From a virus, in IMG/VR virus record IMGVR_UViG_3300045125_000156: DNA of 50,155 nucleotides; one strand, written 5' to 3'. Of this stretch, positions 165 through 46,770 are shown piece after piece (the stretch's first letter is position 1; every line of letters begins with the position of its first letter). The translations under genes were made by a program, and so were the position numbers. A model generated the notes under the pieces. It searched no databases. It was not told where the DNA came from and saw only the letters and a program-made list of their open reading frames with translations.

Positions 165-1061
165 TCAAAGGGCGCCCATGTTTCCGCCTTGCAGTTGGGA
201 GCGCAAGGCGTTGAACGCCTTGTCGAAGGAACTGGCCGCCGTGGCCCGGTCCGCGTAGCAGAGGCCATCTGTGCCATTGCGGCTTGCCGCCCGCCATATC
301 GACCCATGCAAGACCGCCGCCGATGGCGCCAATGCCAGCACCGGCGCCAGCGCCAGCGCCTTCGAGGGCGCCGCTAAAGCGTTGCACCTTCCAGGCGCCC
401 CATCAGCCCCGGCCAACCTGCGCTCAGGTTACCCCGCCAAGCGCCGCCCCACCAAGACCGCCCAGCGAGCCCTGCGTATACTTCCGACCATCTGAGGGCT
501 GAGGCCCGGCTGCGCCAGCCAAAAACTTTGGCGACGGTTTGCGATAGCGGCCGTAATGGCGGTCTTCTGCAGCCCGAATACCGCCAAGGTGTGTTGCTCA
601 GCGGCCAACTTGATCTGTACTTCGTCCATGATTCTACCTCTCAGTTCAAACATAGCGGCTTCCTTCCTCGCCTCGGCCGCCGCTTCCGTGTTGGCAACAA
701 ACTGCCGCCCCTCGCGACTACCTTCACGCTTCTTGGCGTTGGTCGCCGATCTTTCACCGGGTGAAAGTTTCTTCCAGGCATCCTTGGGGAGATACCGGGT
801 CGTACCGCCCGGACGCTCGGCGGGCTTGCCGTCCGACGTGGTCCACTCCTGCTTGGTCCACTTCGAGAGCGATTTCTGGGCCTCAGACTTACCGCCCTTG
901 TAGCCGCCGCCACGCTCTTTGTACTTCTGCGCGACGAGCTGCGCCTTGCGGGCAGACCACTGCCCGGGCTTGCCGCCATCGGACCCCGACATCACCTGCG
1001 ACTTGATACGCTCGCGGAGGCCGGGTTTGGTGTAGTTGCCGGAAGAGGATTCGCCTGCCAT
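165..1061 (-). CDS. DUF5872-domain protein with C-terminal K-x-A motifs and glycine-zipper segment (frameshifted; 3' end approximate)
   Basis: ATG at 1061 with GAGG RBS. N-terminus YTKPGLRERIKSQVMSGSDGGKPGQWSARKAQLVAQKY...KWTKQEW...RYLPKDAW...QFVANT matches DUF5872 as I recall it. Continues KEAA/KLAA/QKTA and, across frameshifts, GAGAGAGIGAIGGG. Confidence 0.75.
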
Positions 1062-1068
1062 GGGCGCC

Positions 1069-1802
1069 TCACACGAACGGGAAGTTCGGTTCCTTGTGCG
1101 CGACAACGCGCGCGACGCCCTGCGCTGCCGCAGCAACTTCAGCGCGCGAAGCGGCGACAGCACGAGGTTAAGGTTGCCGATGTACACGTCCGTCCCCGTG
1201 TTGTTGGCGACCTGCACGGCGCTCGACGCGTCCTCACGATAGCCCTCGTCCAGGTTGATCACCGTGAGCGTCCAGGCCGCGCTCACGCTGAGCTTGGCCT
1301 CAAACTGCCGGATCAGGACGTTCCCCGTTTGATCGAGCGTGAAAAGCCCCGCGTTGCCCGCCGGACTGAACGTGTACCGGGAGTTACGAACGACCGTGGG
1401 GTCGATGGCCCCTGTTAGCGTGCCTGCTGTCGCGGCCACGGTGCCCGTGCCGTTGCCGCCGTACGCGGCGGTCACGATATGCCCCGCCCGCTGCACCGCT
1501 GTAGCGACTTGAATCGCCGTGGAGGTGATGGCGCCTGCCGCTTTGCGAAGGACGACGTCGAGCCGCGTGTCTCCGGGGTCAAAGGTCACAATCTCTGCCG
1601 GCGTATCGATGCCGGGGTCGATCATGCGGACTTTGTAGCCGTTAAAGTCTGCGCCCTGCTTGCGCGCCCGGAAAATGACTTCCGAGTTGCCAGCCCCCGT
1701 GGAGAGGGCGGCGCGTCCGATGGCGGTGCCGTCAAAAACGGTCACGCCTCCGACGATCTGTTCAACGACAATGGACGAGGAGGTATCGTAGTCTACGCGC
1801 AT
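1069..1802 (-). CDS. putative virion structural protein (beta-rich, tail-sheath-insert-like segment)
   Basis: ATG 1802 with AAGGAG RBS. T/G/A/V-rich; ITSTAIQVATAV...GGNGTGTVAA resembles insert domains in phage sheath/structural proteins. Its fusion to the DUF5872 gene in the ORF track is probably a frameshift artefact. Confidence 0.5.
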
Positions 1803-1824
1803 GGCTCCTTGAGTATAGCGGAGT

Positions 1825-3364
1825 TCATTTCTCTTCCCAATTCAAACTGACGGCGACCGACGTCGTGTTCGACACCGTGGCCAGAGAGATGGCCAAAACA
1901 TCGCCAGGAGAGAGGCGTAGATCGAGCTCCTTGAGATTTATCATGAGCGCGGCGCCTGTCGAAACGACCGCTGCGGCTGTAAGTGTCCCGCCCGTCGGAG
2001 TGAGGTTTGTCGGCGCCGCGACCTCCATCCCGCTGGTCGTCTGATTGACGTAGCTCCAGTTCATCGTGCCGGTGAGCGTCGGGTTGATGTGAAGCCGCAC
2101 GCGAACAATTCGGTTGCTGGTCTCGACGGCTGCCGTCAAAAACTTCGGCAGCATCTCGCGCATGTTGACGATCCCGCCGAACTCCCCGCGAACGCGCAGC
2201 GCAAAGGCGACGTGTTCCGTTTCCGAGGACGAATACTCGCCGGCGTGGGCAAGGGATTCCGAATCGCCGAAAGAGGGCCGTCGACGAAACCGGCGGCGGA
2301 AGCCCCGGACAGGGTGAGGTTCGTCGTGGACCCGGAGCTCGAAACGAACCAGCCGACGCGCCTCGTGGGGTTGCGTTGGCTCGCGATGGTATTCGCGTTC
2401 GGGTACTGAATGCGGTGAACGACCACAAACTGCCCCGTAGGCGTCATGACCCGAAAGCTGATCGTCCCGGCGCCGAGATACGGGAAGAGCACCTCGTAGA
2501 CGTTGAGCTTCGTCGGGTCAAGCAGCATGCCGCTGGGGTTCATGGGCCCGAGCGAACCGTCCAGGCGGTCGACGTTCCAGGCCGACTTCGGGATGAAGTT
2601 CGTTACGGTGTCGATGGGCGCGCCCGCCTGCACCGTGCTGAAGGTTCCCGTAACGCCGGCGCCGCTCACGGAGAAGGCGCCTCCCGCTGTCGCAGGAATG
2701 GACTGAATGAACGTGACGGCCGCGCCGTTGCTTTGCGGCGAACCGATCCCGGACCACTCCGTAAAGACGCCGCTCTCGGCGATGAGCTCGGCAACGGCTG
2801 TGGTCGAGAGGGCGCCGCTTACCGGAACGATGAAGGCTGTGCCGTTAAGCGTAACGGTGATGTTACCTGCGCCAGAAGACCCAGTCGTGACGGTGAGACG
2901 GGCTATGTGCGCCGCGCCGCCCGTACGTCGCAGAATGCCGAACTGGGCGCCTTCATAGCCAAAAAGAAAACCCTGCGATTCCGTCATGGGGCCTGCGAGC
3001 TGCTCGCTGTTCGGGGCCCCGGCCGTGAACATCGCCGTGAATCGGAAGCGGGAACTCTGCCCGCCCGCGTGGCGCACGAAGCGCTTGGACCAGAGGCGCC
3101 CGTAGGCGTTCGCCGTGGTGCCGGTGCTGACGGTAAAAAGCCCGTTGGCGGCGCCGGCTGCGCCAGAAAGCGTTGTGAGGGTTTCGGTGTCCGTCGACAA
3201 AGACCATACACGGCGTCGAGCTGAAGCCGTGGTATGGACTCCACCGTCAGCACCTCCCCGAACGCGCTGAGCGGCCCTGTGATCTCCGTGTTGGAAGGGC
3301 CGGTGACCAGAGCTGTCGCTACGTCCACCGGATCGAGAATGATGTTGCTGTTGGTATTGGGCAT
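1825..3364 (-). CDS. virion structural / fibre-associated protein (frameshifted)
   Basis: Joined from ORFs 2984-3364, 2136-3401 and 1825-2163. Motifs SAFGE, RFTAMF, FGYEG and WNVDRLDG...SGMLLDPTKLNVYEVLFPYLGAG are typical of a widespread phage/large-virus structural family. Confidence 0.6.
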
Positions 3365-3608
3365 TGGGCTCCCCGATTACAGGATAGCCCTTGCGGCCCA
3401 AAAAAGGAACGTAGTATTACGGATGCGCCGGTCGGGGGTTTTCGCCGCTTCCTCTCGTTTACCGTCATCCGAAGCCGAGCGGCGTCAGGATGCGGACGGC
3501 GCACTTTTCACGGCGTGAAGCCTTACAGGGCGCGACTTGCGGTAGCTTTCCACGCTTTCTTCAGCTCCTGCGCGTCGAGGTATTCCCCCAGCTGCTGGAG
3601 TTTATGCC

Positions 3609-5411: not shown

Positions 5412-5426
5412 AACGTCGCCTTTCGA

Positions 5427-6070: not shown

Positions 6071-6102
6071 GTTCCGTAGGATAGGGCCTTCACGGCGTGA
6101 AA

Positions 6103-6173
6103 GCCAAAGAAAACCCCGCGCTTTGGAACGCCCCCAGGACGGGGGCGCGCGGGGACCCAGGACGGGTCAGTAG
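6103..6173 (-). terminator. repeat element A, copy 1 (bulged hairpin + U tract)
   Basis: Near-identical to 8199-8268 and 8636-8706; minus strand ccgcgcgcccccgtcctgggggc...gcgcgg followed by a T-rich tract. Confidence 0.7.
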
Positions 6174-6400
6174 CCGTTTCGGCGGAGGCCATATGCCTTT
6201 TCGAGGCATATGGCGGCTTTGCGGTGGCACTCGGCCACGAAAAGCCGGAATTGGGGGCTCGTCGCCCCCTCCTCCCAGCCGAAATCGACCCAATAGGCGG
6301 ACTTCGCTCTTTCGGCCCACTCTTGGGCCTTTTGCTGGAAGTAACCGGACCCGGGGACCGTCGCGTACAGAGAACCCCGGTTGCTGTACGGATTGTACAT
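6167..6400 (-). CDS. hypothetical early protein
   Basis: ATG follows conserved leader C; the stop TGA lies inside element A. Confidence 0.6.
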   Translation of the reverse strand: MYNPYSNRGSLYATVPGSGYFQQKAQEWAERAKSAYWVDFGWEEGATSPQFRLFVAECHRKAAICLEKAYGLRRNGY

Positions 6401-6410
6401 GATCGTTCCG

Positions 6411-6585: not shown

Positions 6586-6589
6586 TTTC

Positions 6590-7156: not shown

Positions 7157-7164
7157 GGACGCCC

Positions 7165-8138: not shown

Positions 8139-8149
8139 CTAACACCTCC

Positions 8150-10599: not shown

Positions 10600-11259
10600 G
10601 CGGACTTCCCCGGCCCAGCGTTGCACCGCCGTCTTGGCCGCCTCGGCCTCAAAAGTCACGTTCTCCCAGACCTTTGGAAACTGCAGGAACTCCCCTCAGC
10701 CGTAACCCAGATGGCCCGCAGAACGTCCGCTTCAGCGCGGTGTTCCGGCAGCTTCGGGCCATTCAAGAGCTCGTAGACCTTGTGGAGCGCTCCAGCCTCG
10801 CTGCCCCGCCTTCTCTTCATGTGCGCCTTTGGAAAAGTCCATCACTTCCCAAAGCCCATCATGCCAGGGCGGATCGCCTGAAATGCTCGCATGGCACCGG
10901 TCGATTTCGCGGCCTGCAGGAACTCTGGCGTCAAACGAGACGTTCTTGGTTCATCAGCACCGCGTCTCGGTCAGGTCCCGCTCGATCTCCTGCCAAACGG
11001 CTTTGGCCTCCGGGGCACTCGATGACCGGGGGCGTCCTTCCAGTCGGGGTGGCCGGGGTAATAACCATTGACCTCGTAGGCCTTGGGGGTGCCCTGGCGG
11101 TACGCCTCCGGGGTCAACGAAAATCGGTAAACCTTGACGTCGAACTGGCCCCATTGCCCAGGTAGCACCCGAGCATAGGCGACCTCGATGATCCGATGTT
11201 CACTGGGTGAAAGTCCAGTGGTCTCCACGTCGCAGACAACAAAGGGGTGCGTAGATCAT
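10600..11259 (-). CDS. DEDD-family 3'-5' exonuclease (DnaQ-like; frameshifted)
   Basis: ExoI motif D-V-E-T-T-G-L...HRIIEVAY. Confidence 0.7.
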
Positions 11260-12841: not shown

Positions 12842-12864
12842 ATATTTTTCACCCCGTGAAACCC

Positions 12865-16596: not shown

Positions 16597-17040
16597 TCAC
16601 TCTTCCTCGTCGAGGTACCCCAGCGCCCCGAGCGCTTCTCTCATGGCCTCGTCGGACGGCCAGCCCCCGCCGCCGTCACGCGGCTCAACCTGACGCTGAT
16701 CGTTGTCCCAGAACCAGCGCCAGACCTCGTCGGGCCAGGTGTCGGGCGCGCCGGCCTTGACCATGCGCCCGCCGATCGACTCGATGTTCGCCTGCGTGGC
16801 TTCAGAATTCACGCCGTGAAAAGTCGTCTTCGTCGGCCACGGGATAATCGTCGAGCTGTCAAGACCGCTCTGAGGAAGTGGTAGATCGCCGTCGGCTCGT
16901 TCTCTTCTCGTCAAGCACCCTGAACGACAGGTGCTCCACCACCCACGGCCCAGTGGCTGAAGCCGATGAGGTTCCCACTGGTCGTCGAATTCTTCTTGGC
17001 CTTGAGCGCCTTCTCCAAGGCGCGTTCCCAGTTGACTCAT
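16597..17040 (-). CDS. hypothetical protein
   Basis: Trp/acidic-rich ORF; its stop overlaps the next start. Confidence 0.45.
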   Translation of the reverse strand: MSQLGTRLGEGAQGQEEFDDQWEPHRLQPLGRGWWSTCRSGCLTRRERADGDLPLPQSGLDSSTIIPWPTKTTFHGVNSEATQANIESIGGRMVKAGAPDTWPDEVWRWFWDNDQRQVEPRDGGGGWPSDEAMREALGALGYLDEEE

Positions 17041-18977
17041 CCAGAGGTCTGGTCACGGGTAAGAACCACAGGCCCGACGCACCAGTGCTCAGGGTCCTGC
17101 TCTCTCGGGTGATCGCTGGAGATCCAGCAGTCACTCGGCTTCTTCAGAAGCTCTTTGATTTCCGTTGATTTCCCCGTTCACGGCGTCGTTCACAGCGTCC
17201 CTCCGGCGGCGTCACGGCTGCGGCCACGGCCTCACACACGGCGTCGTTCGCGGCGCCCCTCACGGCGCGGTTCACGGCGTTGTTCACGGCGTTGTTCACG
17301 CGCACCGCACGGCGTCGTGCCGGCCCTCCGGCGCCGTTCCGTCGCCTCCTGCGGCGCGGTTCACGGCGTTGTTACGTCATTCATTGATTTTCCTGTTCGC
17401 GGCGTCGTACACGGCGTCCCTCACGGCGCGGTCCACGGCGACGTCACGGCGGTCGTCCCGGCGACGTACACGGCGTCGTGCACGGCGTTCCGGCGCGGCC
17501 CACGGCGCGGTTCACGGCGCGTTCACGACGCCGTTCACGCATCGTCCACGGCGTCCCACACGTCGTGGCCACGGCGCGGTTGCGTCGCTCCTCACGGCGC
17601 CCCTCACGGCGGCGTTCACGTCATTCATTGATTTCCTCCTCTGCGGCGGCGTCTACGTCATTCACGATTTCCTCCCTCGGCGTCGTACACGGCGGCGTTC
17701 CGCTCTCGCGCGCGGCCTCGACGCGACCTCGTACACGGCGTCCCACGGCGTCGTTCACGGCGTCGTTCACGGCGCCGTTCACGGCGTCGTCCACGGCGCC
17801 CACGGCGTCGTCCACGTCACTCATTGATTTCCTCACCTCCGGCCTCCTCTACGGCGCCCCTCACGGCGTGGTCCACGGCGTCGTGCACGGCGCCCGCACA
17901 TGGCGTCCCTCACGGCGGCGTACACGGCGCCTTCACGGCGCCGTACGGCGCGGTTCACGGCGTTGTTCACGTCATTCATTGATTTTCCTGTTCACGGCGT
18001 CATTGCACGGCGTCCCTCACGGCGCGGTCCACGGCGACGTACACGGCGTCGTCCACGGCGTCGTACACGGCGTCCCTCACGGCGTCGTCCACGGCGCCCC
18101 TCACGGCGCGGTCCACGGCGACCCACACGGCGTCGTCCACGGCGTCGGCCACGTCATTCATTGATTTCCTCCCACGGCGTCGTCCACGGCGTAGTACACG
18201 GCACCCCTCACGGCGTCGTCCACGGCACCCTCACGGCGACGTCCACGGCGTCCATCATGTTGCCCGCCACTTCGCCCCACACGGCGTCGTTCACGGCGCA
18301 GTCCACGGCGACGTACACGGCGCCCTCACGGCGCCCCTCGCGACGTCGTTCACGTCATTCATTGATTTCCTCCCTCACGGCGCGGCTCACGGCGCGGCTC
18401 ACGGCGTCCACACGGCGTTGTCTACAGCGCCCCCACGGCGTCGTCCACGGCGGCGTTCGCGGCGTCGTTCACGGCGGCCCTCACCGGCGCGGTCCACGGC
18501 GCGGTCCACGGCGGCGTACACGGCGTCGGTCACGTCGCTCATTGATTACATCCCTCACGGCGCGGCCTCACGCGCGGCTCACGGCGTCGTACACGGCGGC
18601 GTTCACGGCGCGACTCACGGCGCGATTCACGGCGCGATTCACGGCGCGGTCCACCGCGCGTTCCACGGCGCCCCACACGACGTGGTCCACGGCGTCGTTC
18701 ATGGCGTCCCACACGGCGGCGTTCACGCCGCCGTTTACGGCGGCGTTCACGTCGGCGTTTACGGCGTCGTTCACGTCATTCATTGATTTCCTCCTTTACG
18801 GAGCCCCTCACGGCCTCCTCTACGTCGCCCCTCACGGTGCCCCACACGGCGTCCCATACGTCGCCCCTCACGGCGCCCCACGGCGTCGTCCACGGCGCCC
18901 TCACGGCGTCGTTCACGGCGCCCCTCACGGCGCGGTCCACGGCGACCCTCACGGCGCGGTTCACGGCGGCGGTCACG

Positions 18978-19178
18978 TCACTCGTTGATTTCCTCCTCTA
19001 CGGCGACGTACACGGCGTCGTACACGGCGGCGTTCACGGCGTCGTCCACGGCGCGGCTCACGGCGCGGCTCACGGCGCCCCACACGGCGTCGTCCACGGC
19101 GTCGTCCACGGCGTCGTACACGGCACCCCTCACGGCGCCCCTCGCGGCGCCCCTCACGGCGTCGTTCACGTCATTCAT
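18978..19178 (-). CDS. array unit mini-protein (66 aa, intact example)
   Basis: MNDVNDAVRGAARGAVRGAVYDAV...VAVEEEINE; RBS GAGGAGG lies in the previous unit's EEE codons. Confidence 0.75.
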   Translation of the reverse strand: MNDVNDAVRGAARGAVRGAVYDAVDDAVDDAVWGAVSRAVSRAVDDAVNAAVYDAVYVAVEEEINE

Positions 19179-19959
19179 TGATTTCCTCCTCTACGGCGAC
19201 GTACACGGCGTTGTCTACGGCGCCCACACGGCGTCGTACACGGCGCCCCACCCGGCGTCGTCCACGGCGCCCCACACGGCGTCCCTCACGGCGTCGTCCA
19301 CGGCGTCGTCCACGGCGTCGTACACGGCGGCGTACACGGCTGCGTCCACGGCGTCGGTCACGTCACTCATTGATTTCCTCCTCACGGCGCGGTTCACGGC
19401 GCCCCACACGGCGCCCCACGGCGTCCCACACGGCGTTGTTCACGGCGCCCCACACGACGCCGTACACGGCGTCGTCCACAGCGTCGTCCACGGCGGCCCT
19501 CACGGCGTCGTACACGGCGTCGTCCACGGCGCGCCTCACGGCGGCCCTCACGGCGTCGTTCACGGCTGCGTCCACGGCGTCGTACACGGAGCGGCTCGCG
19601 GCGCCGTTCACGTCACTCCATTGATTTCTCCCTCACGGCGCCCCTCGGCGCCCCACACGGCGTGCCACACGGCGTCGTTCACGGCGCCCCACACGGCGTC
19701 GTACACGGCGGCGTTCACGGCGTCGTTCACGGCGGCCCTCACGGCGCGGTCCACGGCGGCGTCCACGGCGTCGTACACGGCGGCGTCCACGGCGACCCTC
19801 ACGGCGTCGATCACGTCATTCATTGATTTCCTCCTTTACGGAGCCCCTCACGGCCTCCTCTACGTCGCCCCTCACGGCGCCCCACACGGCGTCGTCCACG
19901 GCGTCCTCACGGCGTCGTTCACGGCGCCCCTCACGGCGCGGTTCACGGCGGCGTTCACG

Positions 19960-20148
19960 TCACTCATTGATTTCCTCCCACACGGCCTCCTCTACGGTGC
20001 CCCTCACGGTGCCCCACACGGCGCCCCACACGGCGCCCCTCACGGCGTCGTCCACGGCCTCCCACACGGCGTCGTCCACGGCGCCCCTCACGGCGTCGTT
20101 CACGGCGCCCCTCACGGCGCGGTTCACGGCGGCGTTCACGTCACTCAT
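19960..20148 (-). CDS. array unit mini-protein (62 aa, intact example)
   Basis: MSDVNAAVNRAVRGAV...EEAVWEEINE. Confidence 0.75.
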   Translation of the reverse strand: MSDVNAAVNRAVRGAVNDAVRGAVDDAVWEAVDDAVRGAVWGAVWGTVRGTVEEAVWEEINE

Positions 20149-20717
20149 TGATTTCCTCCCACACGGCCTCCTCTACGGCGCCCCTCACGGTGCCCCACAC
20201 GGCGCCCACACGGCGCCCCACACGGCGTCGTACACGGCGCCCCACACGGCGTCGTCCACGGCGTCGTCCACGGCGTCGTACACGGCGGCGTACACGGCTG
20301 CGTCCACGGCGTCGGTCACGTCACTCATTGATTTCCTCCTCACGGCGCGGTTCACGGCGCCCCACACGGCGCCCCACACGGCGTCGTTCACGGCGCCCCA
20401 CACGGCGTCGTACACGGCTGCGTCCACGGCTCGCGTCCACGGCGTCGTACACGGCGTCGTCCACGGCGGCGTCCACGGCGGCGTTCACGTCATTCATTGA
20501 TTTCTCCTCACGGCGTCGTTCACGGCGCCCCACACGGCGACGTACACGGCGTCGTCCACGGCGTCGTACACGGCGCTCCACATGGCGTCCCTCACGGCGT
20601 CGCCCACGGCGCCCCACACGGCGTCGCCCACGGCGCGGCTCACGGCGCTCCTCACGGCGTCGTTCACGGCGCTCCTCACCGGCGTCGTTCACGGCGTTTT
20701 GCATGCCGCTTCCCACC

Positions 20718-21017
20718 TCATTTTCCATCGAGCTCCTCCCTCACGGCAGCGCGCACTGCGGTGTCAACCGCCACGACGAAGCCGTCGTCGGTCGTGCAAA
20801 GCGCTACCCTTTCACGCCCGCGTAATTGCGGAAAAAGAGCGACGTCTTCTTCTTCGACGCGCCACCAGCGAACGCCATCTTCCGAGAGCCCGTCTTCCCG
20901 TCGAATTGATCGAAGTACGGGACGTACGGTTCTTCCCCTTGATACTTGCCGGGGCGCCTTACTTCCTCGGCAAAAAAATCGACGTCCATGCGCTTCCTCC
21001 CACACGGCGGCCAGCAT
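20718..21017 (-). CDS. hypothetical protein coupled to the first array unit
   Basis: Its stop overlaps the ATG at 20728; ends AVRAAVREELDGK; true start may be 20989 (GGAGG RBS) with an indel. Confidence 0.45.
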   Translation of the reverse strand: MLAAVWEEAHGRRFFCRGSKAPRQVSRGRTVRPVLRSIRREDGLSEDGVRWWRVEEEDVALFPQLRGRERVALCTTDDGFVVAVDTAVRAAVREELDGK

Positions 21018-21144
21018 TCAGCTTTTCACGCCGTGGAAATGACCGCCGAAAGGCCGAACGCCGCGCCCAAGCACGCAATCCCTCACCCCATGTGAGAAAT
21101 TTCTTGGGCGCGGCGAGTCGGCTCTTCGGCCGAGAAACAGGTTG

Positions 21145-24105: not shown

Positions 24106-24468
24106 TCAGAAAGCCAAGTCTTCCATGAAGTCGACGATCTCTTTGGCCAGACAGGTGTCCGGGTCGCCGCATTTCACCTGGTGAAAAAACACCAGGAGGT
24201 CGGCGGCCATGCTGGCCTTGTCGCGCCCGCCGGGCGAATCCCACATGCCGCCCGGCCGAACGGCCTCCTGGATGTCCGCAAAGAGCGCCCGCAGCTCTGC
24301 GTCTTTGCAAAGAGAAAGGTACATTCCCAAGCCTGTCGGCGCCGCCAGATGGCGCTGCCGCAGGCGGTTGATGTACGCGAGAGCCTCAAGTTTTTCGGCC
24401 CGCGTGTTGAAGGGGACCGTCCACCCCGGCTCGCGAAGCATGATGTCGGTCTGCCGTTCGGACAACAT
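24106..24468 (-). CDS. hypothetical protein
   Basis: Intact 120-aa ORF with a plausible RBS. Confidence 0.55.
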   Translation of the reverse strand: MLSERQTDIMLREPGWTVPFNTRAEKLEALAYINRLRQRHLAAPTGLGMYLSLCKDAELRALFADIQEAVRPGGMWDSPGGRDKASMAADLLVFFHQVKCGDPDTCLAKEIVDFMEDLAF

Positions 24469-25995: not shown

Positions 25996-26168
25996 AAAAG
26001 TTTCTCGTGGAAGACAAAAACAGAACCCTGCTTGGGGAGTTTCAAGACATTCTCGACGCCATGGAGTTCTGTAAGAGTCAGGAAGACAGTCTCGTCATCC
26101 GCGTCGTCGATGGAGAGCGGACGGACATGACGTATCGGATAAAGGCGAGGCAGAATTTCACGAAGTGA
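25992..26168 (+). CDS. hypothetical protein
   Basis: GTG start MKKFLVEDKN...; converges on the gene ending at 26172. Confidence 0.4.
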   Translation: MKKFLVEDKNRTLLGEFQDILDAMEFCKSQEDSLVIRVVDGERTDMTYRIKARQNFTK

Positions 26169-26171
26169 AAG

Positions 26172-28203
26172 TCACTCTTTCACTTCCAGCTTGCTGCGCT
26201 GTTTGATGGCCTTCGGCGGAATGAGCAGGGGGTGCGTCTGCTTGGCGATCATGTCCTTGACGCCAAGAGGCTTATAGGTGTGCTTGCCGATCTGATAGCC
26301 GATTGTCCCGCCCACCACGGGCCCGAGCAGAGCCGCCGCCATCCCCCGACCAGGGGTCCTCAGGTGCTTACCAATAGCCGGAATCAGCGGCAACAAATTT
26401 CCAGCAAGACTTCCGATACGCCAGCCCCTGAATTTGCGCGAGCGGTCTTGACGTTGTTGGTTTTTCTTCGTGACGTCCCCGGACGCCGCATAGCCCGCGA
26501 GTGTCATGTCGTTAGATACCTGATCCGCAAATGCGTTGACGTCACCGTTGAACTTTGTCTCGGTTTCGTAGCGCATGTGATCGACATCAAATTTATTCTT
26601 GAGCGTTATCCCCAGGGGTGCTCGTAATCGAGCGTCCGCGTACGACCTTTCTGGTCGACGCTCGTACCGCCCATCCGGGCAACAACACGCTCCAAAAACT
26701 CTTCATTGCTCAAATTTTTCGAAGAGCCAAACTTCCGCAAGGGCCCCATCGCCGAAGCCTCTTGAAGCGCGCCCGCAATCTGATTGCTGAAACGCTCCTT
26801 TTCGGCCGACATGTTCTTCATGTACTCTTCGACGCTCTTGGGATCATCCTGCGCCGTGAGCCAACGAAGGCCTTTCATCACAGGCTCACTGGGGAGCGTG
26901 GTGATGTACCGCATGACCTTCACCTTCCGCTCGTGCCCGGGCAGGTGCTCATGGCTCTTGTAGCGGATGCCGCGCCCGATAACCTGGTTGATGCGCGACT
27001 CGTTCCAATGCGGCTCCATCAACTGAATGGCCTTGGTGCCCTTGAGGTCCAAGCCCTCTGATCCCGCCCCGAAACCAGCAACACCGGGATTTTGCCAGAG
27101 TTGTAGTCTTTCACCATCTGGTCGCGCTGCTTTTTTGAAACCTCGCCGGTGAAGACGTGGTGCGCGATACCCGACCGCTGTAGTGCGCGGCTCATGGGCT
27201 TCAGGCCGGCGTCGAGGTAGTTCGAGTAAACAACACCTCGGAAATTCGGGTCCTTGTCGTGCATCTCCTTGAGGTGCTTGGCCATCAGCTGAATCTTCGG
27301 CGTGTGTTTGTCCTCTTCTTCCTCCGTCATCCCCTGGACATAAGGCCGTGGCGTATTGGAGGCCTGCCGAAGTGCGCCTTGAAAGGCGTTGAGGTCGCGA
27401 GACTCTTGTTTGTTCAGGGGCAGCCCGGCTCGAATTTTTGCGCGCAGATACCAGGGCATTTTATTAGAGTGGTATTCGTACATCGCGTGCTGCTTGTCCG
27501 ACATCGGGACCGCGTGCTCGACGTCTTCCCGATCAGGAAAACCCGTGCCGCCGCCCGAATGAACATCCACATAGCCCTTAGCCGCACGGATCAAAGCCTC
27601 TCGGTTGATGAGTTTGGGGCGCGTTACCGTGTCGACGGGGTGCCCCAGGAGGCGGCCCTTGATGCGCTCTAAAAAAGGCGCTTCGACCGTTTCTTCCCCG
27701 ACGAAGGTCTTTTTGAACAGCGCCGGGTCATCCGGCAAAACCTTCTTCCCCGCCGCCGTGTTGAGCAGCATGGCGAGGTCGTAGGGCTGGTTGTAGACCG
27801 GCGTGCCCGTGAGCAGAAGCCGAGCCTTGGCCTTGGCTACCTGCCCGGCGACGTCTTTGGAGATCAGCGTCCCGGCGTTACGCGCCCGGTGTGCTTCGTC
27901 CATGATGGCGAGCGCGGCAAGATTGATGTTCTTGTCGCGGACGGCCTTTTCGTAAGAGCGAATGCGCGCGTCCTCGGGAACTTCATCGAGGTGCTTTTCG
28001 AGCTCTTTCTCGTAGTTAGCGACGAGCGGCGCGGGTACGACAGCCTCGATGGGTAGGCCAAGGGCGTCAGCGGCGGCGATGGACGAAAGCGTTTTACCGC
28101 TGCCAACGCCGTGTGCCACGAGCAACCCACCGGAAGCCTTGAGCTTGTCGATTACCCGCTGCTGGTGGGGCTGCAACGGGGTGCGAACGTCCGCGAGTTT
28201 CAC
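26172..28203 (-). CDS. SF2 (SNF2-like) helicase with N-terminal KLA motif and probable glycine-zipper C-terminal extension (frameshifted)
   Basis: AHGVGSGKT, IMDEAH, LTGTP, (G)LDLKG, EPHWN..RINQVIGRGIRYKSH; ORF 26172-26576 may be its tail or a separate gene. Confidence 0.85.
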
Positions 28204-28227
28204 GGAGTGAAGTATAGCAGTATGGGC

Positions 28228-29280: not shown

Positions 29281-29527
29281 ACCAATCTTCTGGATTTCGT
29301 TGAAAGTACTTGATCTCCTTGAGCTTCTCCTTTAGTTCTCTTTCCGCCAGTTCCCATGTGAACCCCGTCTCCTCGATGAGGCGCTCCTCGGTGACAGATT
29401 CCCCGCAGACGTCTACCAGCTTGTCGATGCGCGGGCCATTGTCACCCTCGTCGTAAATGGCGACGAAGGCCTGCCCGTCCAAAAAGACGCAGTCTCTCTG
29501 CATATTCACCCCGTGAAAGAAGGCCGG

Positions 29528-31171: not shown

Positions 31172-31645
31172 TTACTTTGTCCACCAGTCGGGAGGCGGGC
31201 GATTTTTTCGCCAGCGCGCAAACCGGGACTTGCTATCGAGATAGAAGTTCCGGTACGCCACGACGGCGTTGTCTTCGTGCAGATACGAAGGCATCACCTG
31301 CACGAACGGAGTACGCGCCAGCTGATCAAATGAGACTTGATCACGGGCGGCGTCGATTTCCGCGATTACGGCTTGTGACGCGTGCGTCTTGCCGTAGCGG
31401 TAGGTGTACTCGCGGCACAGCGCGAAGCCGTGGACAAGGGTCCAACGAAAGTTGGCTTTTGAAGTCTTTGCCCACAAGGTGCACGGGTGGCCTGCGTGAC
31501 TCGGGCGATAGCCGACCTTCACGCCGTGAAGGTGGCAGGCCGTAGACAGTATCTGCGCTGTCTCGGACGCCATCTTCACGACGTGTTGGTCACAAGCCAT
31601 CTGCGCTGCGACGCGGGGGTCCCGGTCGAGCACGAAGATATTCAC
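31172..31645 (-). CDS. pyrimidine dimer DNA glycosylase / endonuclease V family protein
   Basis: MNIFVLD.DP..AA...CDQHVVKM..ETAQILST...Y...H..HPCTLW...N..W......LC.EY..RYGK.H...YRNFY...K. Confidence 0.85.
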   Translation of the reverse strand: MNIFVLDRDPRVAAQMACDQHVVKMASETAQILSTACHLHGVKVGYRPSHAGHPCTLWAKTSKANFRWTLVHGFALCREYTYRYGKTHASQAVIAEIDAARDQVSFDQLARTPFVQVMPSYLHEDNAVVAYRNFYLDSKSRFARWRKNRPPPDWWTK

Positions 31646-33859: not shown

Positions 33860-34435
33860 AGAGCCCCTTTTGTCTTGCCCGCGAAATGCGGGACAAAGAC
33901 GATTACTGTTACCAGCTTTTGCCCGTGGCTTTTGCGTAACCTTTTCCGCAGCGCTTGCAGAGCGCTTCCGGGAAAGCCGTGCTCGTCGAGCCGAGTTGTG
34001 AAATCACAGAACCGCTGCACGATGAAACAGTGCGTGCAAATCACGTAATCGCGGTTGGCTTTCAGCTCAGCGCTGAAACCTTCAAGGGTCGTGAGGTCGT
34101 TGGTTGATACCGGAGGCTTGGGCGGTGAAGCCTTCTTCGGCGGTGGCGCAGCCGCAGGCTTGGGCAGCGCAGGCTGGATGGTGACGGCTTTCTTCGGCTT
34201 GGCTTTCGCGGCAGGCACCGCGAAACTTTCGCCTTCCAGATGGCCGTGCTTTGAACAGGCGTAATTCCGGACCTCGAAGTCGAGATCGAGGAGCGCCTGG
34301 TTCACGGGGTGAAGGTTTCCGCGTTTGCACCTGGAAACATTTCTGCCCCTCGTCGCAACCGCAGAGCGAGCGCACGTAGCCGTCTTCGCTGTTGCCGGCG
34401 ACGGTGTACGCTTCGCCGCAGCGGTCACAATTCAT
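33860..34435 (-). CDS. Cys-rich hypothetical protein (frameshifted)
   Basis: CDRC, CFQC-like, CSKH and CTHC pairs with a Pro/Lys linker. Confidence 0.4.
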
Positions 34436-35645: not shown

Positions 35646-35987
35646 TTAAATAGCCTTTTGCTTCACGCCGTGAAACCGTCGGCAAGCTTTCAGGCGGCAG
35701 GGCGGCGAGCGCCTTGAAGTCAAAATCCCAAACCTTCGGAGCACTAGCACCCGGACAAGCACGTCGTCCGGCAAAATGCCGGCGGCTTGATAGACCTCAT
35801 TGGCTTCTTCCGGGAAAGCTTCAAGATCTTCACGAACTGCGGAATCCGCTCGGCCGTCAGCGGGCGGCGCCCTAGCTCGATGTCGGAGATATATGCTGCC
35901 GTAAGGTTTCCCGGCAGCTGCGTCCAACCTCGGCCAATGTCAGCCCCAGCTTTTTCGGGCGTCGCGTAATAATTGCCCTGCGCTCAT
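35646..35987 (-). CDS. XRE-family HTH regulator (frameshifted)
   Basis: Across frames: MSAGQLLRDAR...AAYISDIELGRRP. Confidence 0.6.
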
Positions 35988-38157: not shown

Positions 38158-38645
38158 CTTAACCCTTGAGGGGATTATTCGGCGTCGTCGATCTTGACGC
38201 CGAGGTTCTTGGCGAGGTCCGGATACTTCCGGGCGTCAAGCGATCCAGCTTCTTGCTGGCCACCTTGTACTCGGCCTTCTTCAAGGCGATCTCGTCCCTT
38301 CAGGTCGTCGACCTGCGTGATGAGGAGTTCCAGCTGCTCACGTGCGTCAATCTGGTCAGGGGTCATTTTACGTGCCTTTCGATGAGTTCGCAGAATGTCT
38401 GCTCTAGAAGCTTGACCTTATTGTCAAGCTTGTCCCCGGCGCCAGGTTCGCCCCTTGCTAGCGCGTCCTGCGCATCCTTCACGGCGTGAAGGTCTCGTGC
38501 AAGTTCCTGGAGAAGATTTCTCCAGGGCGTAGCCCTTCTCCACTTTCATGTTGTGCCCCTGTGCCTCAAACGAGACGGGTTCCATCGTGTGTGTAACACG
38601 TGCGCGTAACACTTGCCACACACGTCGCCCAAGGCACAAGATACG

Positions 38646-40325: not shown

Positions 40326-41647
40326 TCAGCCACCTGCTCCTGCGTCAGCACCATAGACATCAACCAGCCTTTCAAAGGCCGCCTGAATCTGGTCGATGTG
40401 GCTCTTTTCGCCATCGCCGCCGAAATTCATGCGACCACTCGTGGACCGAGTGTTACCACGAACTTGCCGAGACTGGCGAGCTGCCCTCTCGAAATCAAGA
40501 TCTCCGCCGCATCTCTGTGCAGGCCCCAGGCAGAAGCGGGATCGCGGAAGAGCCACGATGCTGGTGATCTTGCCGGGGTCTGCGTTCAGGATCTTCTGCC
40601 CGAGCTTCAAGCCCGCGACCAGCACCGCCCGCTCGGCCTCGTCCAGTTCATGCAACTGCACGCGGCTCGTGACCTCCTGCTTGAGCTGAGCCTGAATCTG
40701 CTCTTTGCCCGGAAGTTCACGCTTGAGCAGGGTGGCGAGCGCCGTACCGAGAACGATACCCTTCTTGCCAAAATGATCGAACTCGGCGGCCTCGCTTACC
40801 GAAGCCGTGGGGTAAGCATCGGCGCCAAACTCCTGATGAAACTCCGCAAGGAGCGCCTTCGACACCGGGCCGGCGGACACGTAACGGAAGGCCTCGGCCT
40901 CGGCCGATTCGTTCCGCAGCATCTTGTAGAGCGCCCCGCCAAGGTCGACGTTTCTCGACGAGAGCTCACCCCAGATCTGGTGGATCTCGTAGTCCATATC
41001 CCACGAAGACGGGATACGGCGGTCGCGGCCGATGTCGAGCTCGACGAAGTTGTAGCCCGTCGAGTAGTTCGGGCGCGTCGTGCAATACACACCCTTGACG
41101 AAGATCTTGCCGACGTAATCGGCGTCGAAGATCACCGAGCCGCGACTGGCCGTTTCGACCTTCGTCGGCGCGCGCAGCGCTAGAAGCATGTCCTGGATCG
41201 CCGCCCACGCCTCCGAGTTCACGCCGTGAATCTCGACCTTGAAGTCCTTGTTCTCGGCGCTTCCCTTGCGGATATTGACGGTCAACACTTCTTGCCCGAG
41301 CTTGTCGGGCTCAATCGAGGCTGCCACACCTCGGATCCATTACGGATCAAGAGCTTGTAGCCGAGCCGGGCGAAGACCAGCATGGCGATCTTCAGGCCCT
41401 CGCCGTACTGGCCGATGTAGCGCACGTACCCGTGCTTGGACGTACCGCCAAAATAAAGCGCTTTGGCATCGACCGTCACGCCCCGGTTGATGAGCGAAAG
41501 AATCTCTCGCTTGGGGTCATGCTTGGCGGTGAAGGCCGCACCGTTCTGAGACTCGCCATCGATGCCGTTGGCTACCAGTTCGCGGATGGCCTCGCGAATG
41601 GTCCAGTCGCGGACGTAGTCGACGGTGATGGGGTATTGAAACTTCAC
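40326..41647 (-). CDS. GHKL (Hsp90-like) ATPase with C-terminal HExxH-like motif (frameshifted)
   Basis: YVRDWTIREAIRELVANGID...LYFGGTSK...IGQYGEGLKIA; near the C-terminus VHEWSHEF across an indel. Confidence 0.8.
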
Positions 41648-42432
41648 GGGACACTCCTTCTGCAGCGGCCACAATGGACGCGTGCGAAGGCTTGTACCCG
41701 TTACTTGTCAGAATTTTCGACGGTGATGGGGCGCAGGATATCGTCTGAGAAGTAGACGTTACTCGGTCCACTCAGGCGTCTTGATCGGCGTGGGGAGCGC
41801 TTCGTACTTTTGTTAAAGAAGACGTCCGCCGTTTTCTTGGCCAGCCCTGGGCCTCCGGGGTGCTTTGGCCGGTGCCTTAATCTCAAAATCAACTTGGGCT
41901 CTGCGTCGCTCAGGTTGATCTTTCGGATCTGGGCTTGGGCCTGAAGGCCGCACTCAAGCGGGGCGAAGTGGTCAGAGACATGGAACTCCCTCGCCCTCGT
42001 CTTCAGCGGCCTTGATGTACTTCCGGACGCTGTGCGCCTTGTGCAATACGAAGAGGAACTCGTAGTGCTCCATATCACTTTGGATTGGGGATTTTGGGCA
42101 GGGCCTGCGCGTAATACTTGAATGCCATTTCGCCGGATTTCGTTGATGCGGGCCTGCTTGACCGGACAGTCGCGGGCGTTCAGCGTGTTCAACGCCGACA
42201 ACTCCACGGCGAAAAGCGTCTGCTCGGGTGCAAGCTGCATCTCGAGGCGCACAGCGCGATGAACTTGGTGATGCGCACCGCCGCCTCTTTCCCTTCACTG
42301 AAAGGGTCGGCCGATGGCTTCTTCTTCGCGCCCAGACCCAGGGGTCCTTTACGCTGCGCTCTTCGGGCTCTTCGGGGCGCGTGGCCCAGGCCGCCAGACC
42401 CTTCAAGCTTCTCATAAGTCTTGGCGAGGTCG

Positions 42433-42741
42433 TCAAGCGCGCGGCTCTGACCCTCGACGTAAAACCGACCCTTGCTCACGGCGTCTTCTCGGCACGAGTT
42501 CAACCGCGCTGGTGCATTCCGTACGCGTTCCCGATCGCTCGACCACCAGGAGTTGAGATCGCGTCGTACCGGCAGGCGCGCGCTTGACGTCGAGATCAAA
42601 CGGCTCCGCTTTGTCCCACTCCTTCGGCGGATAGACCGACCGGGCTTTACAGTGGCCATACCAGACTTCTTTCTTCTTACCCGCTACGTACTTGTACTGC
42701 TGGGAGAAGTGGGCGCTAGTCGCACAGGGGATTCGGTTCAT
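42433..42741 (-). CDS. hypothetical protein
   Basis: GAGG RBS, ATGA coupling. Confidence 0.4.
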   Translation of the reverse strand: MNRIPCATSAHFSQQYKYVAGKKKEVWYGHCKARSVYPPKEWDKAEPFDLDVKRAPAGTTRSQLLVVERSGTRTECTSAVELVPRRRREQGSVLRRGSEPRA

Positions 42742-43067
42742 GACTTCCTCGCAATCAGGACATCGTGATCTTCAAGCGACTTACGAACTTTCGCGCTCTG
42801 GGACTTCGCGTCTAAAAGCGCCAGGGCGATCCGGTCAATCGCCATGAGCTTTGCCATTTTCTCGTCAAAGGAGCTCGCCTTTACGTAAAGCGTCAAAGCC
42901 CCCAAGGTCACGGTGACCTTGGGTGCCAGCAGCTTCTGGGCGTCGAGCACGATTGATTGCCGCGCAAATTCTCCTAAGAGCGCCTTGTCGACCTTTAGCG
43001 TCGCGTCGATCGCACGCCCGAGCGCGTCCTGGGCGTACTTGGATAACTTCGCGCCGTCGCGCTCCAA
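42738..43067 (-). CDS. hypothetical protein (start probably further upstream)
   Basis: Helical ORF coupled to 42741. Confidence 0.4.
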   Translation of the reverse strand: MERDGAKLSKYAQDALGRAIDATLKVDKALLGEFARQSIVLDAQKLLAPKVTVTLGALTLYVKASSFDEKMAKLMAIDRIALALLDAKSQSAKVRKSLEDHDVLIARKS

Positions 43068-43217
43068 GCTAAAAAGCCACGGTGACCTGAAAGGCTCGCC
43101 CGTCGAAGGTCATCTCACGGCGCGGCACGCCCTCGACAGACTCTTCGGCGATACGTTCGGCACGGTCAACCGCCGTATCGTGTTCGGGCTTGGCCCACGG
43201 GCTCAACACCCCTTTGG

Positions 43218-43680
43218 TCACGACGCCCCCGAGAGTTGCGGGTCGTGGCAGTCGTAGTGAACCATCTCGTACTCAGCGGCGCACTGCACGGCCTTGGCCC
43301 CGGTGTCGGGGTCTTCGCCGATGCCCTCCACGATGATGGTCGGGACTACCCGGTCGCCGCGCACAAAACGTTTCTTGCAGCGCGCGCACATATAGTCAGG
43401 AACGCGAGCTCCCAAGGTTGCGACTTCTGTGTCCATTTTCAGGGCGCTTCTTGCGAGGTCAACAAAGGGGCCGTCCAGCGCGGTGACATTTTTGCACTGA
43501 ACGTGGGCGTATTCTTCGCCCTCGGAAACGTAAGAAGGCAATCCCCGGCGCCACGCGGGTGCGGGCCGATGCCCGCCACGATCTTGATCTCCGTCCGTCG
43601 ATCCGTGGCGGGCAAGGACCTCCGCGACACTTCGCGCAAGTATCTGGCCCGGTGCGTACGGTGACTTCTCTCCGATACTC
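43218..43680 (-). CDS. Cys/His-containing hypothetical protein (frameshifted)
   Basis: HVQC, CARC and HYDC motifs in duplicated sub-domains. Confidence 0.45.
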
Positions 43681-43695
43681 CACCGGGCGAACGTA

Positions 43696-45705
43696 TCACA
43701 CTTTTGTTGAAAGCACGCGCAAAGAGCGTCTTGGTCGATTCAAGATCGGGGTTGAGCGGGTGCAGGATGCAACTCCGGATGGTGGCGGCGTAGCTGCTTG
43801 TTTCGACCAGAGCACGCGATCGTCGAGCACCGCAGGCACGGCCCCATGTGCCGTCTCGCGGCGGATCAAGCGCCCGGCCCCCTGCTTGAAGTCCATGATG
43901 GCTTCTTGCAGGTCGTTGCTGCTGCCATGAGCGATCAAAGACGCCTTGTTCTCGTCGGCCCCGTTTTCGATGTGACGCTGCACCGTGCGGCTTTTTCGCG
44001 CCGTGAAAACCGGGTCGTCGGGATTGGGAAAGGCAGCCGGGGGAGTACGACGAGCCGCAAAGCCAAAGCCCAGGAGGTCCACGCGCCTCCCAGAGCGACT
44101 TCATGCCCAGGGCGACACCGTTCTTGGTCGACTTGAACCAGCTGATAAGGTTATCGACGTTTCCGCTCTGCGCTCGAGCTTCGTAGTCATAGGGCGTAGC
44201 GCGGCGAGCCGGTCATAAAAGGCCATCATGTCTTCGTAAGAGGCGCACAGCACGAGCGCGCCGCCCGGAAGGCCGTGAAGGCTCATCCATCGCCGACGTG
44301 CAGGTGCGCCAGTAATCGGCTTTTGTATCGCGGCCGTAGGGTGCGGTCTTGTCGCTGACGTAAAGACAAGAGCGGGATTTGTAATCGAACACGGGCGGCA
44401 GGATGACCGCGTGCTGTACGTCCGACGGCCGCAGCCCGAACTCCCGGCTGACGTAATCGAAAGTACCGCCCGTGGAGAGCGTCGCGCTCGTGAAGACCAC
44501 CGTGCCAATTTGACGTAGCGCCGGGCCGATCGAAGGGCCGATCTCAACAGGCGTGGCAATGACTTCCCGGTGCGCGTCGTTGCGCGACTGCTTGGTCTCA
44601 ACGTAACTGATGTAATTCTCGGTTTCGAAACGCGGCGAGATCTTCCGGCACCTCTTTGTCGAGAACCGAACTGCAGACCGAGCACGCGCCGAGCATACGC
44701 TGCGTAATGGTGGCGGCGGCCCGGAGCCGCCCCAAGAGCTGGGGCTCGATCGTTGAGAAGCGGTTTTCAACCTCTTCGTCATCCCGCTGCTCGGGCATCG
44801 ACCACACCCCGCGAGCAATGAATTGGTCCTTGAGCGCGCGCAGGTCTTCGGCGACAGCGTTCGTGTTCTGCACGACCTCGCGGCTCGGTTGAATGGTGCC
44901 GCGCTCCGAAGGCGCGATAAGAAGCGATCGACGTTGTGGTCAAGCGTGTCGGGCACGAAAATAGACGTATCGGCAAGCAGCTTGCGCAAGGCTTCCGGCT
45001 GCTTGCTCTGAATGCGACAGGTAAAGGCCTCTCGAAAATAACGTGCGGCTTGATGGGCCTCGTCGATCACCAGCGCGTCGTATTCCCCCAGGAGCTTTCC
45101 CGCGCCCAGGGCCAGGTCGTAAGCCAGCAGCGCGTGGTTGACGATCAGGATGTCGGCCGCCCAGCGCCTCGGACTTGGCCCGCTTGGTAGCCGCAGTTGC
45201 GGTAAAAATCACAGACCGTTCCGATGCACTCGTTAACACGAACGTGATTGGCAAAGTCTACCTCTCCGGTAAAGTCGTCGAGTTCCGCGAAATTGTCCTG
45301 GGCTATCCACTGCGAGAACGCCGGAAATCTGCACGAGGTCAAAGCGGTAGGCGGCCTCCCCGTGGCAAACTCCCGCGCGCGCATCATGCACACGTAGTTG
45401 CTCTTGCCCTTCAGCGACGCGAACTGCGCCTTCGACGGTAAGCGCCCCAAAAGAAAAGGCAGGTCCTCGTCGCGAAGCTGCTTCTGCAGAGCCTTCTTCG
45501 CCGTCGAAACGACCACCCGCTTACCGCTCAGGATCGCGGGGACAAGATACCCAAAGCTCTTGCCGGTCCCCGTGCCGGCCTCGATCATCGCGATCCCTTT
45601 GTCTTGTAAAACCTTCTCAACCAGCGTAGCCATTTCGACCTGAGCAGGTCGAACCGTACAAGCAATCCCCTTCGCCGAATCTGACAGCCATTCTGCTGCG
45701 CTCAT
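43696..45705 (-). CDS. DinG/YoaA-family ATP-dependent DNA helicase (frameshifted)
   Basis: RPAQVEM, EAGTGTGKS.GYL.P, LKGKSNYVC, Fe-S Cys, IDEAH, TSATL, LWE, FPNPDDP, FKQGAGRLIR, LDDR. Confidence 0.92.
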
Positions 45706-45765
45706 TCTTTCTCCTCGGCGCGTGACAAATACGCGCCAAGGGCATATACCACGAACAGGTGTAAA

Positions 45766-46325
45766 ATGACGATTCAACGCCCCGGAAAGTACGCCGCTGA
45801 TGAACTCGCCCAGGCCGCTCTCAACGATGAGGAGCCCCAGCCGGCCGCAGAGGAAAAGCCTGCGGCTCCGGAAGAAACAACCAGAAGTCTCCCATTGAGC
45901 GATGGCGCGACGCCACTGAAGCTGCCGGCATCACGGAAGAAGAGGCTGACAAAGTTCTCGACGCCGTGTTGGCGCAGGGCTATTACGAAAAAGCCTGCAA
46001 GGTTTTCCGCATGGCCGGCTAACGGTCGTTCTTCGCTCTCGCGACTCGGCAGCACTTCAGCGCGTATCTGACGCGCTCGACGCCGTTCGGACAAACGACC
46101 TGCGCGTGCACACGCAGACCATGAACCGTTACAACCTCGCTGCGTCGCTCGTGCGGTATCAGGACAAGGTGTTCAAGCACCCCGCCGGGAACGCCGACCC
46201 GGTCGAGCGCGAGCGCGCCTCGCACAGAGCGCTTGGGGTTTATTGATTCGATACCCGCGCCGGTCCTTCTGCAGCTCTATGCTGTTCTTGGAAAGTTCGA
46301 CGCGATTGTCTTTGCTGCGCTGAGC
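45766..46325 (+). CDS. hypothetical protein, possible tail-assembly factor (frameshifted)
   Basis: Divergent from the DinG gene; upstream of the tape-measure-like gene. Confidence 0.35.
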
Positions 46326-46329
46326 GAGG

Positions 46330-46770
46330 GCGCAGAGATGGGTTTCTAGCCTCCCCGTCAGGCTTGGCGCGATCCCGCTCTGCGTCACAAGGGGTCGCGC
46401 TTCCTCGACGCGGGGACGTTTCAGGACGTTCTCCTGCAAGAAGTTGATTATCGAGAACGCAATCTTCGTTATTCAGAAGTCATGCTGTTTACCACGTTGT
46501 TTGAATACCTTCTGATGTTGACGGCGGAGTTGGTTCCCGGAGATCAAAAACGCCAATCCGCCATGAAGGCGCAAATTACCAATCATGTGGAAAAAGTTAT
46601 CAGCAAGTACGAAGCTGAACTGTATCAGGAGCGCTACCTGCCAGAGTATCAGCGGGCCATGCGTGAGATTTCACGTCGTGAAAAAGAGGCTGAAGAGGAG
46701 GAGACGTCGCCGAGATCAGGCCGCGCTAGACCGCGTAGCTGAATTCGATGCGGACGCGCCTTCGCCGTAG
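46330..46770 (+). CDS. hypothetical protein (frameshifted)
   Basis: ...KYEAELYQERYLPEY...; position typical of a tail chaperone partner. Confidence 0.35.

Follow-up and report, generated by a model that had tools for sequence, protein, structure and literature searches.

What does it mean when a phage chromosome carries the same short palindrome every few kilobases, and which protein reads it? The question is raised by the IMG/VR virus record IMGVR_UViG_3300045125_000156, analysed here as one stretch of 50,155 nucleotides, called the window. Dispersed along it is the palindrome TTCAC-N3-GTGAA (TTCACNNNGTGAA). These palindromes are probably a genome-wide lattice of binding sites, and the most likely binder is the phage's own orphan ParB-family protein.

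The window holds 16 perfect copies (Table 1). Dinucleotide-preserving shuffles yield 0.01 on average, and never more than 1. An initial annotation, made from the letters alone, had reported a strong excess over chance, which stands. It had listed 15 perfect copies; all of these were found, and one at 24173 had been overlooked. Its five one-mismatch copies were likewise all recovered (the one given as 13617 starts at 13616), and a further one at 13581 brings the total to 6, where 1.2 are expected. Other spacer lengths, which that annotation had named as the comparison to make, do not compete: spacers of 0-2 and 4-10 occur zero times in the window.

The dyad is perfect and has no strand orientation. 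It extends weakly into the flanks, which gives a full consensus of TTTCAC-GSC-GTGAAA, an odd palindrome of 13-15 bp (as a 15-bp duplex, TTTCACGSCGTGAAA). Of the window copies, 7 have GCC/GGC as spacer and 3 have CCC/GGG. The arms had been likened to the core of bacterial parS with a 3-bp spacer added, and indeed the half-site TTTCAC is the same as that of parS.

The window is part of a large uncultured phage, with 12 tRNA genes, an SNF2 helicase and matches to virion proteins. A nucleotide search of INPHARED with window positions 1-20000 gave no cultured-phage match. The nearest relative, here called G001, is an IMG/VR contig of 130,678 bp (76% complete) with a helicase identity of 91%. It overlaps the window at 21125-50155 and 658-1053; window positions 1054-21124 are absent from it. 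The comparison covers 50 relatives, among them G001, G002, G003 and G005; 46 further ones were gathered via the helicase. Codon-model gene calls are weak in the window, with a coding fraction of 0.45 compared to 0.92 in G001, G002 and G003. Statistics on genes and junctions are therefore taken from these three genomes.

The array continues along the whole of G001, which has 39 perfect copies, against 0 for a reversed-pattern control, and 14 copies with one mismatch. The GCC/GGC spacer (TTCACG-S-CGTGAA) is found in 18 of the 39. The window and G001 share 11 sites, and in these 143 of 143 bases are identical, spacer included. The 60-nt flanks around the same sites are only 86.7% identical. For the arms alone, such identity has P ~2e-7.

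When the proteins of G001 are held fixed and synonymous codons are shuffled, a mean of 1.97 in-gene sites is obtained (maximum 8), and 27 are seen. The sites are read in two phases, 17 as x-H-x-V-K/N and 10 as x-S-x-R/G-E; the third phase would read TGA. The peptides that the sites were said to impose are thus real, but they are not conserved at the matching positions of orthologues in G002, G003 and G022. The motif dictates the protein, and not the reverse. The earlier claim of selection at the DNA level can be upheld, since the sites outlast the synonymous-codon null and stay invariant amid 13% flank divergence.

The sites are also spread far more evenly than chance would have it. G001 and G002 each have a coefficient of variation (CV) of 0.54 in perfect-site spacing, and G022 has one of 0.45, with P<0.0002 in every case; for the window by itself, P=0.008. 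The perfect sites are remote from the 14 one-mismatch sites of G001 (mean 1,956 nt, P<0.0002), and the latter occupy the three 8-kb gaps. The mismatches are confined to the outermost arm base and arm position 4, and are almost always A to G, a pattern of tolerance that is typical of protein recognition. With both kinds taken together G001 has 53 sites, with gaps that average 2.44 kb and reach 4.7 kb at most (CV 0.43, evenness P<0.0002), and the window has 22 sites with a CV of 0.50.

Among distant relatives the positions of the sites turn over, while density and evenness persist. This argues for selection on coverage of the chromosome, not on the regulation of single genes. There is an exception to the turnover in the gene for a 1,992-aa fused beta/beta' RNA polymerase with an InPase-like insert (G001 71667-77645, plus strand). 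Its site at G001 73012 (PLHGVNT) stands at the same codon as one in G022 (LYGVK), each in its own dialect.

These dialects are sequence variants of one architecture. Across the relatives they have a common core, ACG-S-CGT, and the central S (G or C) is kept; they include TTTACGSCGTAAA in G003 and RTACGSCGTAY. G002 carries CMRTACGSCGTAYKG in 101 copies. In G003 the form is CTTTACGSCGTAAAG, with 46 copies of the TACGNCGTA core, and in G022 it is TTTAC-N3-GTAAA, with 21 copies. G051 has TTAC-N3-GTAA 5 times in 20 kb, while its 28-kb record has 7 copies of the more general TYAC-N3-GTRA. G015, G018 and G005 have thinner arrays that are alike in kind (6-14 copies).

Counted as TYAC-N3-GTRA, the ratios of copies to control are 47/1 in G001, 36/1 in G003, 33/5 in G022, 14/1 in G015, 13/3 in G005 and 7/0 in G051. 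None of the 42 other relatives reaches 13 copies at four times control. The excess is restricted to genomes with a ParB of the G001-type clade; G002, as noted, has its own dialect.

The initial annotation had suggested a search for a phage ParB-like protein, and one with a ParB-type helix-turn-helix (HTH) is present in G001. It is 352 amino acids (aa) long and encoded at 65214-66272 on the minus strand. It scores 54.3 bits for HTH_ParB (cut-off 22.6), 16.5 bits for KorB, and 24.4-26.9 bits for ParB_N, which is around that model's cut-off of 26.3. Matches in the PDB are to Spo0J, ParB and Noc structures (E 6e-13 to 1e-8) over the N-terminal and HTH domains, and the PHROG matches are ParB-like partition proteins. 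A ParB gene was not found within the window itself.

G002, G003 and G005 each have a syntenic ParB orthologue. Around it a convergent sigma70_r2 gene and the genes for a PD-(D/E)XK nuclease and an SNF2 helicase are conserved, and a dioxygenase is not among the neighbours. The convergent arrangement of parB and sigma70_r2 is invariable (G001 64388-66778; G002 47529-49951; G003 59191-61580). Ahead of parB lie 450-500 nt with no called gene, where two array sites are found in G002 and one in G003.

Among the 46 further relatives a ParB occurs only in G015, G018, G022 and G051, with more distant ones in G031, G007 and G006. One orphan ParB is present in every genome that bears an array with the common core. 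According to a quick helicase tree, the phages with both ParB and array form three separate groups. Among cultured phages, orthologues of this ParB are limited to partial, distant matches, and no cultured model was identified.

For the C-terminal part (residues 278-352) a symmetric homodimer is predicted, with a score of 0.63 compared to 0.05 for the best control. Of 30 proteins solved as pairs of one chain, 20 attain this mark, as does 1 of 23 solved as single chains. At least 60% of the contacts coincide between runs, and the partner has a predicted local distance difference test (pLDDT) value of at least 60. Since structures of ParB C-terminal dimers already exist, this outcome may be due to likeness alone. 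A simple one-residue code that relates the recognition helix of ParB to the dialect could not be read from the 11 sequences.

No ParA partner was found: AAA_31 and CbiA have no match in G001, G002, G003, G022 or G005, and the ParA-binding motif [LFI]G[KR]G[LFI] is absent from 11 of 11 phage ParBs.

Several observations weigh against ParB as the binder. Three genomes with divergent ParBs, G031, G007 and G006, show no array. Conversely, G042 (the 197-kb record of locus L122) has a dispersed palindrome, TTGATATCAA, 21 times against a control of 0, and no detectable ParB, so that palindrome arrays do not always need one. Every phage orthologue has a degenerate cytidine triphosphate (CTP) box that lacks the Glu of GERR. 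In G001, GERRxRAA has become GRQRVRAA and QPxxVR has become QPPLVT, while the ENxxR box is kept as ENIKRR. Because of this, sliding in the manner of a clamp is uncertain. For half-sites set 3 bp further apart, we know of no precedent among chromosomal ParB sites. Finally, two other genes, for a Cys-rich protein of 118 aa and a protein of 184 aa, have the same distribution as ParB among the 50 relatives, with seven complete or large carriers. Co-occurrence can therefore not single out ParB. It is preferred because of what the ParB family is known to read.

The spacing of the G042 palindrome appears less even (a rough, hand-derived CV of ~0.75). Other palindromes were encountered among the relatives as well. 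G004 (the record of L005), which is ParB-less, has GAGCT-N5-AGCTC 15 times where 0.8 are expected and CGCCGGCG 64 times where 10.7 are expected; TAC-N3-GTA is depleted there, with 2 against 11 expected. Loci L112 and L131 show local repeats, AAAAC-N2-GTTTT four times, AAAGA-N2-TCTTT four times and AGATATCT eight times. These are helicase loci of records that are 33% and 62% complete, too partial to establish their ParB status.

It is possible, if rather unlikely, that another symmetric DNA-binding protein of phage or host reads the sites: the Cys-rich protein, a repressor of the stoperator type, or a ParB of the host. The two co-distributed genes speak for this, as does G042, where a ParB-less relative has a different dispersed array. 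The Cys-rich protein (window 43218-43541, minus strand; G001 21394-21747) bears a CxxC...C...H pattern, and the half-sites are identical to those of host-type parS. Nevertheless, neither the 118-aa nor the 184-aa protein matches a known family of sequence-specific DNA-binding proteins, and the latter is found elsewhere among the relatives as a domain of large open reading frames (ORFs). Among the proteins that track the array, ParB alone is a recognised HTH dimer, and TTTCAC is exactly the half-site that the ParB family is known to read. One report describes stoperators as asymmetric and oriented with transcription (PMC4351075), and the array sites are neither. The window copy of the Cys-rich gene possibly has an indel or frameshift near residue 15.

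Two known systems were tried and rejected in this connection. Stoperators of Cluster A do not fit, as the phage sites are perfect dyads and neither spacer nor flanks show an orientation bias. MatP-matS also has a 13-bp palindrome of the form 5-N3-5, read by a ribbon-helix-helix protein; five genomes were searched for MatP (PF06303), with no match.

That a DNA transaction enzyme targets the palindrome is improbable, whether for nicking or cleavage, base modification, loading of a primase or replisome, or recombination at a hotspot. Even spacing would suit a process that acts along the entire DNA, and the motif includes a word like that of a type II restriction enzyme, CACNNNGTG, which we take to be that of DraIII. 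This word is near expectation outside the full motif, however (72 in total, 39 of them in full sites, 22.6 expected). Searches of five genomes, array-bearing or related, gave no N6/N4 or C5 methyltransferase. The phage nick sites that we know of are asymmetric, which counts against a nicking target.

A transcription signal, meaning a promoter, single-gene operator or terminator for the phage RNA polymerase or a sigma-like factor, is very unlikely. There are reasons to consider it: the phage encodes both a sigma70_r2 protein and the fused polymerase, several window sites follow terminator-like hairpins or touch gene starts, and intergenic DNA is ~3-fold enriched in sites. Such enrichment is expected in any case, since constraint is lowest there. 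Against it, 59-73% of sites lie deep inside genes in the three well-called genomes. The ~30% at gene junctions use every junction type, convergent ones included. Spacer and flanks show no orientation bias relative to the gene strand, the flanks are not conserved, and from one relative to the next the positions change and the spacing is retained. As an RNA hairpin the site folds with a mere -1.8 to -2.7 kcal/mol. Taken together, the in-gene sites, the mix of junctions, the lack of orientation and the weak hairpin disfavour a promoter, terminator or RNA element. What the initial annotation had proposed, that a dimeric protein binds the palindrome and that this is no ordinary operator, fits better, and we infer such binding from the perfect dyad, the use of both open phases and of all junctions, and the even spacing.

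An RNA hairpin or extruded DNA hairpin promoter like that of phage N4, whose early promoters have the same 5-bp stem and 3-nt loop, is highly implausible: besides the weak folding energy there are no compensatory or strand-consistent wobble variants, the loop is neither conserved nor oriented to the gene strand, sites sit in genes on either strand, and the dialects alter both arms in concert to keep an invariant sequence, not merely pairing.

If the orphan ParB is indeed the binder, it would act as a symmetric dimer encoded by the phage, with an N-terminal ParB/CTPase-like domain, a ParB-type HTH, C-terminal dimerisation and no ParA. Each monomer would read one parS-like half-site, TTTCAC. With these half-sites 3 bp further apart than in chromosomal parS, the result would be an odd operator of 13-15 bp resembling the KorB-OB type. 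Selection maintains a site every ~2.5 kb with no gap above ~5 kb. ParB could then nucleate at each site and spread or slide a short way. Given such gaps, spreading of this kind may cover the whole phage chromosome. Phage DNA would in consequence be coated or compacted and would be self-marked, and where sites are at gene starts, transcription might be damped over long range, as by KorB.

Denser arrays seem to go with a more decayed CTP box: there is 1 site per 5-14 kb where the box reads GHRR or GYRR, and 1 per 1.7-4 kb where it reads GRRR, GRQR or GRCR. A more elaborate version of the ParB proposal, which is speculative and more likely wrong than right, is that of a self-marking 'chromatin' lattice of a lytic phage. 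Here an orphan ParB that lacks the catalytic Glu of the GERR box, and may have ceased to cycle as a CTP clamp, would be nucleated every 1.7-3 kb and would coat or condense the whole chromosome. More loading sites would offset the reduced sliding, and the wider half-site spacing would be orthogonal to host ParB. In the window, the half-sites of the repeat array at 17160-20728 may replace full sites.

That repeat array had been described earlier as rich in half-sites, which is accurate. It falls within the largest perfect-site gap of the window (16808-24173), 31 of its half-sites take the form GTTCACGGC, and GTGAA is not found in it at all. It might be a half-site sink, or a substitute for full sites in this gap.

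Table 1 Copies of the palindrome and the repeat array in the window, with context and counterpart in G001.
Feature	Position	Context	G001
Perfect site TTCACCGGGTGAA	753..765	Deep in ORF 429-1802(-), read LSPGER	Identical at 130004
Perfect site	3507..3519	Between two minus-strand ORFs	
Perfect site	6089..6101	Right after terminator-like hairpin, minus strand	
Perfect site	11199..11211	Weak coding signal around	
Perfect site	12848..12860	7 nt past stop of ORF 12653-12841(+)	
One-mismatch copy GTCACGAAGTGAA	13581..13593	Mismatch at outermost arm base	
One-mismatch copy TTCGCCCCGTGAA	13616..13628	Mismatch at arm position 4, A to G	
Perfect site	16808..16820	5' end of ORF 16597-16812(-)	
Repeat array	17160..20728 (-)	50 same-strand TTCAC half-sites, no full site	
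One-mismatch copy TTCACGCCGTGGA	21025..21037	Within the 16808-24173 gap	
Perfect site	24173..24185	In ORF 24106-24468(-), read FHQVKC	Identical at 3031
Perfect site	26157..26169	Convergent junction, 25992-26168(+) / 26172-26576(-)	5008
Perfect site	28199..28211	Overlaps GTG start of SNF2 helicase 27019-28203(-); terminator-like hairpin precedes	
Perfect site	29505..29517	Between tRNA-Ile (29526-29601) and ORF 29279-29503(-)	
Perfect site	31518..31530	In ORF 31172-31654(-), read LHGVKV	
One-mismatch copy TTCGCGCCGTGAA	33758..33770	In ORF 33691-34305(-)	12698, also one-mismatch (TTCGCACCGTGAA)
Perfect site	34301..34313	At or near 5' end of ORF 33691-34305(-)	
Perfect site	35662..35674	Between small minus-strand ORFs	
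Perfect site	38478..38490	Between small minus-strand ORFs	
Perfect site	41218..41230	In ORF 40326-41327(-), read IHGVNS	
One-mismatch copy TTCGCGCCGTGAA	43995..44007	In the 41218-46670 gap	Present at 22152
Perfect site TTCACGTCGTGAA	46670..46682		
One-mismatch copy ATCACGGCGTGAA	48584..48596	In ORF 48162-48614(+)	

The site at the GTG start of the SNF2 helicase keeps its position in the 91% relative (L001 9993). At the helicase start of a 54% relative (L004 ~9985-10005) there is a hybrid, TTACGTCGTGAA, with one arm from each dialect. The tRNA genes form a cluster at window 29526-31128 on the minus strand (Ile-tat, three Leu, two Gln, Ala, Val, Thr, Pro, Glu and Lys). It is interleaved with small ORFs, and a palindrome site comes directly after the last tRNA.

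An evenly spaced lattice of the ParB type has barely been described for viruses. ParBs are known as centromere binders; two of them, KorB and Noc, are known for silencing at long range or for marking the nucleoid. Here a clade of phages of 130-190 kb with their own RNA polymerases keeps a site every few kilobases, at a cost to protein sequence. If ParB binds these sites, the clade would offer a natural system for the coating, compaction, labelling or silencing of an entire viral chromosome. It could then relate site spacing to the spreading range of ParB, and could show co-evolution of site dialect and protein. Binding by ParB would also account for the unexplained repeats of Cluster O mycobacteriophages.

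These repeats are the closest described phage feature. They consist of a 17-bp dyad, TGTTCGG-N3-CCGAACA, in 31-34 copies in ~70 kb, for which its authors predict a dimeric binder and a role other than transcription initiation (PMC4351075, PMC6439249). They resemble the present array in their invariant arms, the N3 spacer and an encoded ParB-like protein. They differ in sequence, in arm length and in an unrelated host group, and no link to ParB is drawn by their authors. Neither the Cluster O phages nor the phages studied here give a sign of lysogeny, although here an integrase was not searched for. Among the relatives, those with complete genomes carry direct terminal repeats, and ParA was not found in them.

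Orphan phage ParBs are reported to be widespread and uncharacterised (PMC12704722). Those associated with 5mYOX activate thymine dioxygenases and have no HTH (PMC13229309); since they lack the DNA-binding domain, they are a different subclass.

The canonical ParABS system was considered and rejected. There is no ParA and no ParA-binding motif, spacer 0 never occurs, and 53 sites are spread over 131 kb. The half-site is that of chromosomal parS (TGTTTCACGTGAAACA), but unlike chromosomal ParB-parS the phage has its half-sites 3 bp further apart, lacks ParA, spreads its sites evenly and does so on a viral replicon.

The linear plasmid-prophage N15 also has separated ParB-type palindromes on a phage genome. 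It has four SopB centromere sites and a SopA partner, which serve plasmid partition in lysogeny; the array described here is a dense lattice without a partner. Instead of one centromere cluster, the orphan ParB Noc has many dispersed palindromes to bind, the Noc-binding sites (NBS). It is listed as an orphan ParB in PMC12704722, and among orphan ParBs Noc-NBS offers the closest analogue.

As a mechanistic model, KorB-OB of the IncP plasmid RK2 comes closest; RK2 has about a dozen OB sites. KorB, a CTP clamp of the ParB family, is loaded at OB and slides over >1 kb (PMC11790492). The OB core is TTTAGC(G/C)GCTAAA, or TTTAGCSGCTAAA (PMC11790492, PMC5577506, PMC2680271), and it differs from the G003 dialect TTTACGSCGTAAA only by GC/CG swaps. 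In both systems a ParB-family protein, which for the phage is the presumed reader, goes with an odd palindrome that has a central G/C. Copies occur throughout the replicon, at promoters or gene starts in some cases and far from these in others. Unlike RK2, the phages have 50-100 even sites that are mostly in genes, no ParA and a degenerate CTP box, and the DNA-binding domain of their ParB scores as HTH_ParB (54 bits) where KorB gives 16.5 bits. RK2 additionally has the partner proteins IncC, KorA and TrbA. Because the tests for ParABS fail on the absence of ParA, on half-site spacing and on clustering, the array is filed with the ParB/KorB operator arrays, as a variant of these.

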